This document shows positions 7,830 through 11,944 of a DNA stretch of 64,000 nt, piece after piece. The position numbers and the translations under genes were made by a program. How positions within the stretch are numbered: position 1 is the first letter of the stretch; every line of letters begins with the position of its first letter. The stretch spans positions 23,243 through 87,242 of the forward strand of contig JAGWLA010000003.1 of NCBI GenBank assembly GCA_028865095.1. The letters are read 5' to 3'. The DNA is from Patescibacteria group bacterium (GTDB lineage Bacteria > Patescibacteriota > Minisyncoccia > Phycocordibacterales > PALSA-1337). The notes beneath the pieces are model-generated. The model ran no database searches. It had not been told where the DNA came from and was given only the letters and a program-made list of their open reading frames with translations.

Positions 7830-7859
7830 TTGACATTTGTTATGATATTATGTTATAAT
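7830..7859 (+). promoter_or_regulatory. Near-consensus sigma-70 promoter (TTGACA-N18-TATAAT)
   Basis: ttgaca (7830-7835), spacer tttgttatgatattatgt, tataat (7854-7859), inside an AT-rich island in otherwise GC-rich DNA. Confidence 0.6.
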
Positions 7860-7981
7860 ATAAAGGCAGTACGTTGATAAGATTTCAGTTCCTCAACCGA
7901 TATGGCGCCCGCGAGCGCCATCGCAAATCGAAAGATATCGCGCGGCGGCTCACCGGATAAAGAGCAAAGGAAAGGAAAGTT

Positions 7982-8170
7982 ATGGCAAAAGCATACATGC
8001 CGCAAGCAGAGGTCAGCGGACAAAAACCAGTCGTCGTCCGTGTCATCGTGCAGGATGACGACACCTTCACCATTCCGGTGACCGCGACGCCCGGGGCGCT
8101 GATGTTCAATCAGTGGGGCGCCTATATGGGGCATGTCCCCACTCGGGCGGAGATCGTGGCCTCGAATTGA
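7982..8170 (+). CDS. Hypothetical small protein (62 aa)
   Basis: Strong SD aaaggaaaggaaagtt precedes the ATG. It lies downstream of the consensus promoter and a leader of about 115 nt containing a perfect hairpin (atggcgc-ccgcga-gcgccat). No known family. Confidence 0.4.
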   Translation: MAKAYMPQAEVSGQKPVVVRVIVQDDDTFTIPVTATPGALMFNQWGAYMGHVPTRAEIVASN

Positions 8171-8243: not shown

Positions 8244-10010
8244 TCAGGCTTTCCTCTCTTCGATCTCCGCCTTGAGCCGCTTCAGGATGTCGTCGATGGG
8301 AAGCTGGCCGATCTGGCCGTGGTCGCGGCTCTCGAGGGTGGCTTTGCCGGCGGCGATGTCCTTCTCGCCGATGATGATGGTGTAGGGGACGCGGGACGTC
8401 TTGGCGTTGCGGATCTTCTTGCCGAAGCTGTCGTTCGACAGGTCGATGTCGGAGCGGATGCCGGCTGCCCGCAGGGCGGCGTGGGCCTTCCCGGCCGCTT
8501 CGGCATGGGCTTCGGCGACGGGGATGACCACGGCCTGGACAGGCGAGAGCCAGAGAGGGAAGCTCCCGGCTGTATGCTCGATGAGGATGGACATGAAGCG
8601 CTCGATCGAGCCCATGATGGCGGCGTGGATCATGACGATCCGCTCCTCCTGGCCCTTCTCATTGGTGCAGGACAGGCCGAAGCGCTCCGGCATATTCATG
8701 TCGAGCTGGACGGTGGCCACTTGCCAGCGCCGGCCGAGCGAATCGTCGGCCATGAAGTCGAGCTTCGGGCCGTAGAAAGCGGCTTCCCCAACCCCTTCGT
8801 AATAGTCGGCTTTCTTCTCTACGGCGATCTCGCGCAAAGCGGCTTCGGCGCTCTTCCAGACCTCGGCGCCGCCGAGATACTTCTCGGGGCGGGCGGGGTC
8901 ATGGAGCGAGAGCCGCAGCTTCAGAGAGAAGCCGAACGTGCTATAGAACGAATGGATGATGTCCCAGACCTTCAGGAATTCCTCCTTGACCTGGCTCGAC
9001 CGGCAGAAGACGTGGGCGTCGTCCTGGGCGAAAGCTCGGACGCGGGAGAGGCCCGAGAGCTCGCCTGATTGCTCGTCGCGGTAGCAGACCGTCGTATTGG
9101 CATAGCGCTGGGGAAGCTCGCGGTAGCTCCATTTCTTGCGGGCGAAGATCTGGGTGTGATGCGGGCAATTCATGGGCTTCATGGCGAACTCGTGGCCTTC
9201 GCGGGTGGTGATGCGGAAGAGCTCGTCCTTGAATTTATCCCAGTGCCCGCTCGTCTCGTAGAGCTCTTTCTTGGTGATGTGCGGGATCTCGACTTTCTCA
9301 TAGCCGGCGGCGCGGCGGAGCTCCCAGACGTAATCGTCGAGCAGGTTCCTGACGAGGGTGCCGCGAGGGGTCCAGAGCGGCAAGCCCGACCCGACCAGAT
9401 CGGAGAACGCGAAGAGGTCGAGCTCGCGGCCGAGCTTCTTATGGTCGCGCTTCTCAGCCTCGGCGAGCATGGCTTCGTAGGCTTTCAGCTCGTCGGCGGT
9501 GTCGAACGCCAGGCCGTATATGCGGGTGAGCATGGCGTTCTTCTCGTCGCCGCGCCAATAGGCGCCGGCGAGGCGGGAGAGCTTGAAGGAGTCGGGGGCG
9601 ATGTCGGCTGCGGGATTTGTGGTGTGGCCTCCTCTGCAGAGATCCTCGAAATCACCGGCTTTATAAAACGTGATTTTCTCTCCCCTTGATATGATCTCAT
9701 CTATCAGCTCATGTTTATATCTGTTTTCCCCGGCCCAACTCTTCGCTTCGTCGATCGATACTTCACGATGAGAAAATTCTTTCCATGAGGGAAGGATCTT
9801 GCGCATCTTCTTCTCGATATCTTTCAAATCATCAGCCGTCGGTTTCTTGTTGCCTCCAAAATCCATATCATAATAAAATCCATTATCAATCGCAGGCCCG
9901 ATGGCCAATCTGACCAGGGCTCCGTCTTTCTCGTATAGGTCTTTTACGGCCGCCGCCAGGAGGTGGGCGAGGGTATGGCGCTTATGTTCGAGGGAAAGGG
10001 GGTCTTTCAT
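8244..10010 (-). CDS. thrS: Threonyl-tRNA synthetase, N-terminally truncated form (no TGS domain)
   Basis: Class II core 'KPMNCPHHTQIF', 'RVRAFAQDDAHVFC', an editing-domain HxxxH ('HTLAHLL') and 'CRGGH', plus a C-terminal anticodon-binding domain. 588 aa. Confidence 0.9.
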   Translation of the reverse strand: MKDPLSLEHKRHTLAHLLAAAVKDLYEKDGALVRLAIGPAIDNGFYYDMDFGGNKKPTADDLKDIEKKMRKILPSWKEFSHREVSIDEAKSWAGENRYKHELIDEIISRGEKITFYKAGDFEDLCRGGHTTNPAADIAPDSFKLSRLAGAYWRGDEKNAMLTRIYGLAFDTADELKAYEAMLAEAEKRDHKKLGRELDLFAFSDLVGSGLPLWTPRGTLVRNLLDDYVWELRRAAGYEKVEIPHITKKELYETSGHWDKFKDELFRITTREGHEFAMKPMNCPHHTQIFARKKWSYRELPQRYANTTVCYRDEQSGELSGLSRVRAFAQDDAHVFCRSSQVKEEFLKVWDIIHSFYSTFGFSLKLRLSLHDPARPEKYLGGAEVWKSAEAALREIAVEKKADYYEGVGEAAFYGPKLDFMADDSLGRRWQVATVQLDMNMPERFGLSCTNEKGQEERIVMIHAAIMGSIERFMSILIEHTAGSFPLWLSPVQAVVIPVAEAHAEAAGKAHAALRAAGIRSDIDLSNDSFGKKIRNAKTSRVPYTIIIGEKDIAAGKATLESRDHGQIGQLPIDDILKRLKAEIEERKA

Positions 10011-10044
10011 GGGGTTTGGGTCTGGTGGTTAAGGGGTAAATGGA

Positions 10045-10260
10045 TCGAGAACGGAAACGGCAAACGCCCTGACGAGATCGCGATGATCCGCCGCATGGCT
10101 GATCGTGATCTCATCAGGGCGATCGAGGGACCGCGGTTCCACCTGATTTCCCGCCGAGGGGCGGGCGCTCATTGGACGGATTGGTGCCCTTCGGGCCTCG
10201 GCTGCGCCGATCGCGGGTGGTGGCCGCGACGTTCTCCGCTCAGCGAATGGTACCGCGCCC
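10045..10260 (-). promoter_or_regulatory. Candidate T-box riboswitch leader of thrS
   Basis: The minus-strand leader contains AGGUGGAACCGCGG (10144-10131, matching the T-box core AGGGUGGNACCGCGG as I recall it at about 12 of 14 positions). Directly downstream is a long terminator-like hairpin (arms 10121-10114 and 10072-10065), then UUUGCCGUUUCC about 55 nt before the start codon. ACC (Thr) triplets lie upstream. Confidence 0.4.
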
Positions 10261-10279
10261 GCCCAAGCGTGGCAAGCTA

Positions 10280-10308
10280 TTGACATTGATGTATTATTAT
10301 GTTAATAC
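10280..10308 (+). promoter_or_regulatory. Sigma-70-like promoter (TTGACA-N17-TAATAC) sharing an extended motif with the 7830 promoter
   Basis: ttgacattgatgtattattatgttaatac. Compare ttgacatttgttatgatattatgttataat at 7830. Confidence 0.45.
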
Positions 10309-10368
10309 ATAGCAGGGTATAAGGGAGCAGCACAACTAAAAACCAATAACAGAAAGAGAGAGCGCGAT

Positions 10369-10836
10369 ATGCCCGAGACGATACCGATACTATTGAAAGT
10401 GCACACCACCAACGTTGGCTTCGCTAAAGCCTTCAACTACATGTCCAATTCTTTGAAAGCTCAAGCATTCGAGACTGTATTCCGAGAGGCGGCCCTCAGC
10501 GAGGAAGATATCTGTGCGATATATCCGCACCTGCCGCGCGAGATATTGAATGCGCAACTGTCCCAATTCGCCGGCAGGAAGATCGGCATGTGGCTGGCGA
10601 GCGGGGAAGACGCGATAAGCAGCGCGGCTGTGATGAAGGGGGCGGATAACGATCCGGCCCGTTGCGCCCCATATTCCTGGCGCATGAAGCTGGCTGCGAT
10701 GCTCGGCTTCCGCACGACCATGTTGGCGGACAGCAAGGGAAAGCTGACGATCGTCACCTATGATAATTATGTCCATGCCCCGAAACGCGACGAAGTCGAA
10801 CGAGATATGGCGGTGCTCGGGAGATTCTTCCCGTAG
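10369..10836 (+). CDS. Hypothetical protein (155 aa)
   Basis: ORF with an RBS (agagagagcgcgat ATG) downstream of the 10280 promoter. No recognisable domain. Confidence 0.5.
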   Translation: MPETIPILLKVHTTNVGFAKAFNYMSNSLKAQAFETVFREAALSEEDICAIYPHLPREILNAQLSQFAGRKIGMWLASGEDAISSAAVMKGADNDPARCAPYSWRMKLAAMLGFRTTMLADSKGKLTIVTYDNYVHAPKRDEVERDMAVLGRFFP

Positions 10837-10942
10837 GCATGACCCCATCGTGAACGACGCGGAACGATATGCAGAGCAGCGAGGCCCATCCCTCGCTGTT
10901 TTTTTGTGGATTTATGCGCTTCGCCCTGCTATCATTCGTGCC

Positions 10943-11398
10943 ATGAAAGAGAACGCTCCGTGCGCGTATTGCAGCCTCCCCGCCGTCAAAGAGCGGATGA
11001 TCGCGGAGAACGCGCTGGCGTGGGCGTTCCCGACCAACATCCCCATCACGCCCGGCCATACGCTCATAGCCCCGAAGCGCTGCGCCAAGGCGCTCGGAGA
11101 GCTCACGGCGGACGAACGGCTGGCGATATTGGAGCTCGCCGAGAAGGCGATGGCGGCGTTGCGCTCTCTCTATGGAGCGGAAGGCTTCAATTGCGTCTGG
11201 AACCAGGAGAAGCTGGCGGGCCAATCCGTCCCTCATTTCCATCTGCATGTCATCGGCCGCAAAGAAGGCGATGCCGGCCTGCTCGGCTACGACCCGCGCA
11301 GCATGCTCTATCGGACCGGCGACAGGGAGCCGACGCCGGAGAGCGAGCTGCTCGCGGTGAGGGACGCCATGAAAAAAGCCTTGGCTGCGCACATCTGA
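10943..11398 (+). CDS. HIT-family (histidine triad) nucleotide hydrolase or transferase
   Basis: Histidine triad 'VPHFHLHVIGR' with upstream 'ITPGHTLIAPKR'. The start was set at MKENAPCAY inside the longer track ORF. Confidence 0.8.
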   Translation: MKENAPCAYCSLPAVKERMIAENALAWAFPTNIPITPGHTLIAPKRCAKALGELTADERLAILELAEKAMAALRSLYGAEGFNCVWNQEKLAGQSVPHFHLHVIGRKEGDAGLLGYDPRSMLYRTGDREPTPESELLAVRDAMKKALAAHI

Positions 11399-11401
11399 AT
11401 C

Positions 11402-11944
11402 ATGGCCAACGAGGTGGAGACAAAGGTGCTGGATATCGATGTCGATGACGTCATGCGGAAGCTGGCCGAGCTCGGGGCGGCGAAGACGGCGGAGAACAAG
11501 CTGACCGTCGACTGGTTCAGGCTGAAAGGCGTCGAAGAAGGCAAAGACCCATGGTTCTTGCGCATACGGTCCTATTCCGACGGCAGGCACGAAGCGACCT
11601 GGAAAGCCAAATCGAAGATCACCAAAGGCGTCCGCAGGCACAAGGAGATAAATCTCCTGCTCCAGGAGCCGGACAAGCTCGCCGACCTCTTCTGCGAGAT
11701 CGGCCTGGAGAGGTATGCGCATCAAGAGAAATTCAGGGCGTCATTCAAGCACAAAGGCTGGTCGTTCGACATCGACAGGTATCCGGGCATGCCGGCCTTC
11801 ATGGAGATAGAGGGGAACGACGAGGGGCATGTCTCGGAGGCGCTGGAGCTTCTCGGGCTCGGATCGAACAGGACATGGGCCGACGGCGAGAGGACGCTGA
11901 TCGAGAAGGTCTACGGGCTGGTGTGGAGCGACATGAGGTTCTAA
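11402..11944 (+). CDS. CYTH-domain protein (triphosphate tunnel metalloenzyme family)
   Basis: N-terminal 'EVETKVLDID' (ExExK-like) and a beta-rich 180-aa body typical of CYTH/class IV adenylate cyclase-like proteins. Confidence 0.6.
   Translation: MANEVETKVLDIDVDDVMRKLAELGAAKTAENKLTVDWFRLKGVEEGKDPWFLRIRSYSDGRHEATWKAKSKITKGVRRHKEINLLLQEPDKLADLFCEIGLERYAHQEKFRASFKHKGWSFDIDRYPGMPAFMEIEGNDEGHVSEALELLGLGSNRTWADGERTLIEKVYGLVWSDMRF

Follow-up and report, generated by a model that had tools for sequence, protein, structure and literature searches.

Leaders of the T-box family occur mainly in Firmicutes, with further examples in Actinobacteria, Chloroflexi, Deinococcus-Thermus and a few Proteobacteria, and thrS is a classic T-box target in Firmicutes (PMC2494555). 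A preliminary description of a 64,000-nucleotide stretch of DNA from a Patescibacteria group bacterium (GenBank assembly GCA_028865095.1, contig JAGWLA010000003.1, positions 23,243 to 87,242 of the forward strand; hereafter the window) proposed such a leader upstream of a thrS gene, in a lineage outside the classical T-box phyla. Is this leader a T-box, and what would it sense? Our analysis indicates that it is very probably a riboswitch of the T-box type, with tRNA-Thr as its ligand and attenuation of thrS transcription as its output. It appears to be a genuine but stripped-down T-box, and one copy of a conserved variant that is widespread in the ultra-small bacteria of the candidate phyla radiation (CPR)/Patescibacteria and apparently undescribed. 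The T-box interpretation holds because of about 100 homologous leaders, the covariation among them, and the invariant association of an ACC triplet with thrS.

Discriminator and decoding halves of the thrS leader

The identity of the downstream gene and the placement of its host were both borne out by our searches. The encoded protein matches three Pfam families expected of the gene as named, and the closest relatives of this ThrS in reference genomes all belong to Patescibacteria/CPR (Paceibacterota, Parcubacteria, Nomurabacteria, Falkowbacteria, Minisyncoccia and others). The T-box core had been placed about 120 nt upstream of thrS on the minus strand, and we found it 121-134 nt upstream of the thrS ATG (10010-10008, minus). 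The gene and the discriminator half of its leader, in a genome of 62% GC, comprise the following:

8244-10010, minus strand: thrS, 588 aa, the putatively regulated gene; Pfam tRNA-synt_2b (1e-45), HGTP_anticodon and tRNA_SAD
10170-10166, minus strand: GAGCG, the RRRxG motif as defined in PMC7583486
10165-10150, minus strand: stem III, CCCGCC-CCUC-GGCGGG, aligned to Rfam T-box stem III (model positions 156-190)
10149-10147, minus strand: AAA after stem III, completing the RRRxG-stem III-AA motif
10114-10146, minus strand: antiterminator, from the partial Rfam alignment; folds alone at -13.6 kcal/mol
10146-10142 with 10118-10114, minus strand: helix A1, UCAGG/CCUGA, which covaries
10144-10131, minus strand: T-box core AGGUGGAACCGCGG, identified by sequence
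10141-10135, minus strand: T-box bulge UGGAACC, 7 nt, between helices A1 and A2
10134-10132 with 10121-10119, minus strand: helix A2, GCG/CGC, with the 10-nt loop GUCCCUCGAU
10065-10121, minus strand: terminator hairpin CGCCCUGAUGAGAUC...GAUCUCGUCAGGGCG, 57 nt, -38.4 kcal/mol, part of the minimum-free-energy (MFE) fold of the whole leader
10051-10064, minus strand: U-tract UUUGCCGUUUCCGU, weak and interrupted

The long hairpin reported in the preliminary description is thus present at 10121-10065, and UUUGCCGUUUCC follows it directly, from 10064 (minus). The proposed antiterminator and terminator arrangement is real: CGCCCUGA forms the 3' strand of helices A2 and A1 and also the start of the terminator 5' arm, and the two structures are mutually exclusive, with the terminator far more stable (-38.4 versus -13.6 kcal/mol). 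Such a design, in which terminator and antiterminator share one strand, is that of T-box switches (PMC7583486). Equivalent terminator hairpins overlap the antiterminator in all relatives of the leader described below, and in 65 of 73 relatives at least five U lie within the 9 nt after the hairpin.

The 5' half of the leader is a compact module closed by a helix that we call P1:

10235-10239, minus strand: 5' strand of P1, GCGGA, pairing with UCCGU (10180-10176)
10230-10234, minus strand: 5' junction strand GAACG (family consensus GAUUG)
10211-10229, minus strand: short stem I, UCGCGG/CCGCGA, with the 7-nt terminal loop CCACCAC; from covariation
10221-10219, minus strand: specifier ACC in the terminal loop of stem I, followed by A (10218)
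10199-10209, minus strand: P2 hairpin CGGC-GCA-GCCG, from unconstrained MFE folding of the window domain; its length varies among relatives
10186-10196, minus strand: P3 mini-hairpin GCCC-GAA-GGGC, tentative, from MFE folding
10184-10181 and 10180-10176, minus strand: 3' junction strand CCAA (consensus CUAA) and 3' strand of P1, UCCGU; from the alignments and covariance model R1 (below)

P1 (5 bp) begins at the predicted transcription start and encloses the stem I hairpin plus one or two small hairpins. ACC triplets had been noted earlier in the region that would form stem I; one is indeed found at 10221-10219, and it lies in the loop of a short hairpin of 6-7 bp with no internal loop, not in a canonical stem I.

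Homologous leaders and covariation

At gathering thresholds, the Rfam matches in the window are three tRNAs and a group I intron, with no T-box among them. With permissive filters, a search of 9950-10450 with the T-box family RF00230 (gathering score 93 bits) gave a partial match at 10173-10115 (minus; 30.1 bits, E = 6.1e-5) to model positions 156-216 of 219, which covers stem III and the antiterminator and leaves the stem I portion unaligned. The proposed Rfam check therefore found the 3' half of a T-box and no match at gathering. Because the Rfam evidence extends to only half of the element, the question was settled by comparison with relatives.

In reference genomes, we found the exact sequence GGTGGAACCGCG 100-330 nt upstream of thrS in 12 loci with GC contents of 31-52%, and with one mismatch upstream of thrS in a further locus of 55% GC (L035). 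These leaders share a common plan. A promoter is followed by xAGA-GAUUG, a 6-7 bp hairpin with the loop C(U/C)ACCA(A/C), and one or two small variable hairpins; then come CUAA-UCUx, AAUGAGNG, usually stem III, AA, the T-box core, a strong terminator overlapping the antiterminator, and a run of U. Among leaders found through the T-box core alone, the 5' junction strand is GAUUG in ten, GAACG in the window, GAUCG in L042 and AGUUG in L021, and is divergent in L035.

We then scanned metagenomes with a pattern in which GATTG, the loop frame CY...AA and GGTGGNACCGCG were the sole fixed elements, so that the triplet and the last base of UGGN could vary freely. The scan gave at least 120 matches, and the figures that follow refer to the 120 matches listed, with a hairpin scored as formed when at least 5 of its 6 pairs were present. 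At least 91 metagenomic leaders bear the hairpin; of those listed, all 91 carry ACC and 90 of 91 carry UGGA. The downstream open reading frame (ORF) is ThrS by blastp in 74 of 77 scorable leaders, and tblastn placed thrS downstream of the remaining three and of L117, where no ORF had been called. In the other 29 matches, which have no hairpin, the triplets are of various kinds and each of the four UGGN variants is represented; being ordinary T-boxes hit by chance, these matches provide an internal control. Since a scan with a free triplet yields ACC and thrS throughout, the element is dedicated to threonine and to thrS. Among the members found, we saw no other specifier and no other target gene in this architecture.

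To measure covariation we aligned the leaders module by module, after excising the variable hairpins at landmarks in the sequence. An initial MAFFT alignment of 14 full leaders (A1) had mis-registered the 3' strand of P1 and the variable hairpins, and was replaced by alignments A2 (12 leaders ascertained by the T-box core only), A3 (71 distinct metagenomic leaders among the matches listed) and a larger A4. In alignment A2, 97.3% of cells pair, whereas sliding the 3' partners by 1-3 columns lowers this to 28-40%; two-sided changes are seen at 14 of 20 pairs, and none of 500 shuffles attained the observed score. In alignment A3, whose members were filtered for a formed stem I and in which GATTG, CY..AA and the T-box core were held constant by construction, 96.5% of cells pair versus 32-42% in shifted controls, and compensatory cells number 384 versus 26-56. 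In both alignments, all five P1 pairs have changed on both sides, with 94.4-94.5% of cells paired, as have 4 of 6 pairs of helix A1. Two-sided changes affect 5 of 6 stem I pairs in alignment A2 (100% paired) and 6 of 6 in alignment A3 (98.4%). Helix A2 is invariant in the alignment sets and shows two-sided change in divergent members retrieved with the covariance model, from GCG/CGY to GUC/GAC (L059, L046), AUCC/GGAU (L040) and UCCCGU/ACGGGA (L038, with the bulge UGGAAAC).

We built a covariance model, R1, from 80 relatives, with the window excluded and only the four helices as structure. R1 finds a single match in the window, at 10240-10112 (minus), which is full length, contains no non-standard pair and scores 59.0 bits (E = 3.1e-12); the next-best window score is 7.7 bits. 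Together with the partial Rfam match, this places the element as a whole far beyond chance. Neither R1 nor a motif scan detected a further copy of the leader elsewhere in the window. On 80 reference-genome loci, R1 identified 18 members, 10 of them training sequences, and all 18 lie upstream of thrS on the same strand. Scores of clear members range from 56 to 105 bits. The leader thus accompanies at least 18 of 80 thrS loci in reference genomes, and its distribution among CPR thrS genes is patchy. Contigs FLOH01000015.1, Ga0209475_10000020 and Ga0255338_1000719 are among those with the leader.

Several relatives show gene arrangements of their own. In three independent loci (L012, 1861-2394; L047, 1936-2475; L124, minus strand), a gene for a GNAT acetyltransferase (Pfam Acetyltransf_3, E = 2e-17 to 7e-26) stands between leader and thrS; from this position, it would be co-regulated by tRNA-Thr charging. 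L166 (plus strand) carries two leader copies, at 564-688 and 1487-1647; the second lies directly upstream of thrS (at about 1842), and the first precedes a 220-residue ORF with no identified function. In seven loci (L089, L097, L101, L109, L121, L154 and L170), the leader precedes a short ThrS that aligns only to residues 186-586 of the window protein and lacks the N-terminal part.

Folding of the decoding module, promoter and tRNA partner

Unconstrained folding of 85 decoding domains recovered stem I in 70 and left ACC unpaired in 77. Between stem I and C(U/C)AA, two hairpins are predicted in 45 of the 85 domains and one in 37. Hairpins at the P2 position are present in relatives, as indicated by folding; by inspection they are plain helices. 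For L130, the Rfam model aligns the P3-equivalent hairpin and CUAA to stem IIA and the F-box CCGUUA, and the sole place it finds for a canonical stem I is AT-rich promoter DNA. By eye, we found no consistent complementarity among relatives that would join the P3 loop to the linker downstream of it, as in a IIA/B-type pseudoknot. Many leaders with xxAGA fold with the closing helix in another register, AGAUUG/UAAUCU. We rejected this register as the conserved structure, because about 20 leaders with other P1 sequences pair only in the P1 register, with both sides changed; it may be an alternative conformer.

A consensus scan predicts a promoter directly upstream of the module:

10247-10275, minus strand: promoter-like site with -35 UUGCCA (10275-10270), a 17-nt spacer and -10 UACCAU (10252-10247); prediction

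From this site, transcription is predicted to start at about 10241-10239 (minus), giving a leader of about 230 nt. For 66 of 89 homologous leaders, the best sigma70-like -10 hexamer lies upstream of P1 at a distance of 5-10 nt, counted from its end to the first P1 base; the mode of this spacing is 7 nt, and the window has 7 nt likewise. Since promoter-like sites lie directly upstream of P1, the compact module would be the entire decoding domain, provided that the promoter prediction is right. At the other end of the leader, the 54 nt between terminator and thrS ATG (10011-10064, minus) are pyrimidine-rich and contain no Shine-Dalgarno-like purine run. Pfam searches at E up to 0.01 gave no match for the ORFs flanking the thrS unit (10390-10848, 10754-11725 and 7853-8134, all minus).

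The bulge sequence UGGA predicts a tRNA ending in UCCA, that is, with U73. In L195 the bulge reads UGGG, for which C73 would be expected. ARAGORN identified one tRNA-Thr (UGU anticodon) in 200 loci totaling 1.3 Mb, and none in the first 60 loci. It lies in L134 and ends in ...AGGUGGC-U-CCA, with U73 and an encoded CCA; the same contig carries a leader-thrS pair, and its ThrS is 67.8% identical to that of the window.

The window itself contains, at 26509-27139 (minus), a tRNA gene that is split by a group I intron (Rfam Intron_gpI, 56.3 bits at 26556-26806). Its 5' half reads TCCGGAG-TA-GCTCAGCGGTAGAGC... from 27139 and its 3' half ends in ...GGTCGCTGGTTCGAATCCAGCCTCCGGAGCC at 26509. A reading frame just upstream of the Intron_gpI match contains an HNH-like motif (CANCH). 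ARAGORN does not call this split tRNA, whose anticodon region reads CUGUGGA.

These features suggest how the leader could work. A transcript of about 230 nt would start near 10241, and its 5' module, a P1-closed junction holding the short stem I and one or two small hairpins, would present ACC and a 3' purine in a 7-nt loop shaped like an anticodon loop. This loop would pair with the GGU anticodon of tRNA-Thr; its geometry hints at a possible loop-loop interaction between complementary anticodon-like loops. In the discriminator (RRRxG, stem III, AA, A1, bulge and A2), UGGA would pair with the free UCCA end of uncharged tRNA-Thr, stabilizing the weak antiterminator and allowing RNA polymerase to read into thrS. 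With charged tRNA-Thr, the terminator at 10121-10065 would form via CGCCCUGA, and transcription would stop before thrS. The structural elements with their covariation, the mutually exclusive hairpins, the constant ACC, the exclusive link to thrS and U73 in one related tRNA-Thr are observed; we infer that the leader binds tRNA and discriminates charged from uncharged tRNA, and likewise that termination occurs at this site and transcription starts as predicted.

Competing explanations and relation to known T-boxes

Several of our observations weigh against a tRNA-Thr-sensing T-box. Neither the window nor 13 relatives have an RF00230 match at gathering, and the window score of 30 bits compares with a gathering score of 93. 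The leader lacks the canonical stem I features, namely the kink-turn (K-turn), S-turn specifier loop, AG bulge and distal T-loops, as well as a recognizable stem II S-turn and IIA/B pseudoknot. Unconstrained folding recovers P1 in just 38 of 85 domains, often preferring a shifted register, and the 3'-strand registers of P1 and helix A1 in alignments A2 and A3 were picked from landmark candidates partly by their pairing. Stem III is apparently missing in L019, L041 and L050. The cognate tRNA-Thr(GGU) was not recovered in the 200 loci, and U73 comes from a single gene for another isoacceptor. In the window copy, the pair of helix A2 next to the bulge is G-C (G10134 with C10119) rather than G.U. 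At this position a G.U pair has been described as chiefly responsible for sensing the aminoacyl group sterically (PMC7583486); among relatives, G-C and G.U are found in 38 and 35 leaders, and in alignment A3 in 37 and 34. Finally, the window U-tract is weak and the hairpin is not called by a terminator scan; the main residual doubt about the window copy is that its terminator, having drifted toward GC, may no longer terminate.

Among the findings that the preliminary description had named as speaking against a T-box were no significant Rfam hit, and no stem I that can be folded with a Thr specifier. The stem I that it suggested looking for, with a K-turn, an internal specifier loop, an AG bulge and a distal loop, was not found. 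By these measures the identification is borderline, and it is the comparative evidence that supports it. Sub-threshold RF00230 matches of 35-53 bits were obtained in 8 of 18 loci tested, comprising seven thrS leaders and L152, an unrelated canonical T-box. The L152 element (613-346, minus; Rfam 49.8 bits) looks canonical, with an AG bulge, a distal loop, the F-box CCGUUA, UGGGACC and a terminator, and a second T-box core, UGGCACC, follows about 200 nt later (about 285-184, minus) in a tandem arrangement on this 56%-GC contig; no ThrS match was found in the L152 stretch examined.

The weak U-tract raises the question of whether the window holds a decaying or weakened member of a real T-box family, one that no longer switches and acts as a leader for constitutive expression or a plain attenuating hairpin. 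That the tract is interrupted and the terminator uncalled, that G-C replaces G.U at the base of A2, that GAACG, CCACCAC and CCAA depart from the consensus GAUUG, CUACCAA and CUAA, and that its R1 score of 59 bits lies at the low end of the range for clear members would all fit decay. We nevertheless consider it unlikely: all helices are complete and made of standard pairs (P1 5/5, stem I 6-7 bp, A1 5 bp, A2 3 bp, and stem III), ACC-A and UGGAACC are preserved, half of the members have G-C at the base of A2, and the deviations are mostly U-to-C or A-to-C, as GC drift predicts. The same weak tract could also be taken to mean that the hairpin sequesters a ribosome-binding site, as in the translational control exerted by class II actinobacterial ileS T-boxes, and most truncated stem I elements described to date belong to translational T-boxes (PMC7583486, PMC11297988). 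Such control is very unlikely here, with a hairpin that ends 54 nt before the ATG, no Shine-Dalgarno-like sequence in between, and canonical U-rich tails directly 3' of the hairpin in 65 of 73 relatives.

Two further explanations dispense with a tRNA-sensing leader altogether. ThrRS, the threonyl-tRNA synthetase, might bind its own leader, as in the autoregulation of E. coli thrS, with the leader serving as a protein operator in which the hairpin with the 7-nt loop mimics the tRNA anticodon arm; the size of the hairpin and the length of its loop match such an arm, and the element is exclusive to thrS. The loop holds the codon ACC, however, and not a Thr anticodon (GGU, UGU or CGU), and an operator would leave the UGGAACC bulge, helices A1 and A2, the RRRxG-stem III-AA motif and the overlapping terminator, all of them like those of a T-box discriminator, unexplained. 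We regard it as highly improbable. We give next to no probability to a T-box-like motif that arose by chance beside an unremarkable hairpin or terminator, or to a segment of a small ORF (10029-10286, minus; 9963-10283, plus). The 12-mer core alone is not significant, with 2.9 chance matches (at most one mismatch) expected in the window, and mechanically called ORFs do overlap the region. Against this stand the R1 E-value of 3e-12 and the lack of a Pfam match in the overlapping ORFs, and the compensatory changes and hairpins of variable length in about 100 leaders are incompatible with coding; the comparative data have already refuted this explanation.

A T-box-type riboswitch remains our preferred reading, and its relation to known systems can be stated precisely. 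The leader shares the discriminator and switch design of T-boxes, yet does without several of the features that define the curated family. With class I T-boxes (RF00230; Bacillus subtilis tyrS, thrS and glyQS), it has in common the discriminator (purine motif, stem III, AA, A1, UGGNACC and A2), a terminator that competes with the antiterminator for one strand and is followed by a U-tract, and a specifier that matches the regulated aminoacyl-tRNA synthetase, ends in C and precedes a purine. Class I leaders have a long stem I with a K-turn, an S-turn specifier loop, an AG bulge and a distal elbow platform, which the Patescibacteria leader lacks. Instead, its codon sits in a terminal 7-nt loop, and P1 pairs the extreme 5' end with the segment after CUAA. 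It further differs in its RF00230 scores (30-53 bits versus a gathering score of 93), in the G.U at the base of A2, which is G-C in about half of the leaders, and in its host lineage, Patescibacteria.

Class II ileS T-boxes of Actinobacteria, exemplified by Mycobacterium tuberculosis and Nocardia farcinica ileS (PDB 6UFG and 6UFM, as cited in PMC7583486), share with it a truncated stem I without an elbow platform, a specifier in an apical loop near the 5' end, and the discriminator core. In class II, stem I contains a K-turn, and a long, S-turn-bearing stem II and the IIA/B pseudoknot come after it in a linear arrangement, all of them essential for tRNA binding (PMC10651847), and the output acts on the Shine-Dalgarno sequence (PMC7583486, PMC11297988, PMC10651847). 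We could recognize no K-turn, S-turn stem II or IIA/B pseudoknot in the Patescibacteria leader, whose helices are closed into a junction by P1, whose output is a terminator with a U-tract rather than a sequestrator, and whose specifier is for Thr, not Ile. A further likeness is to the E. coli thrS translational operator, an autoregulatory leader that ThrRS protein binds via anticodon-arm mimics. Both systems would provide thrS feedback through a structured leader with hairpins the size of an anticodon arm; the E. coli operator mimics an anticodon, whereas the Patescibacteria element combines a codon with a terminator and all parts of a T-box discriminator.

These differences lead us to suggest, with about even odds for and against, that the leaders make up a third, undescribed T-box class. 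Such a class would be built on a four- or three-way junction, with the codon in a loop of the form pyrimidine-U/C-ACC-A-A, and would read tRNA-Thr by loop-loop kissing without K-turn, elbow platform, S-turn or pseudoknot. It would be dedicated to thrS and confined to Patescibacteria, as either a minimal derived form or an early relic of T-boxes. In the full-text literature, with most subscription journals outside reach, we found no paper linking T-boxes with Patescibacteria, CPR or candidate phyla, and the truncated-stem-I model of TBDB has been applied to Actinobacteria only. Because the Rfam threshold misses the whole group, pipelines that rely on it are likely to under-report T-boxes. R1, or the pattern GATTG-N6-CYACCAA...GGTGGAACCGCG, can be used at once to find further members.

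According to structural work so far, a truncated stem I holds tRNA only with the help of a K-turn, an S-turn stem II and a pseudoknot. Seemingly without any of these and yet with a transcriptional output, the leader offers a natural test of the minimum required for tRNA decoding, and its compact decoding module is a possible scaffold for engineering. With a conserved T-box in the genome-reduced Patescibacteria, most of which are uncultured, the known reach of the system comes to include a major bacterial radiation, and this T-box represents one of the few regulatory circuits in these organisms that can be read from sequence.

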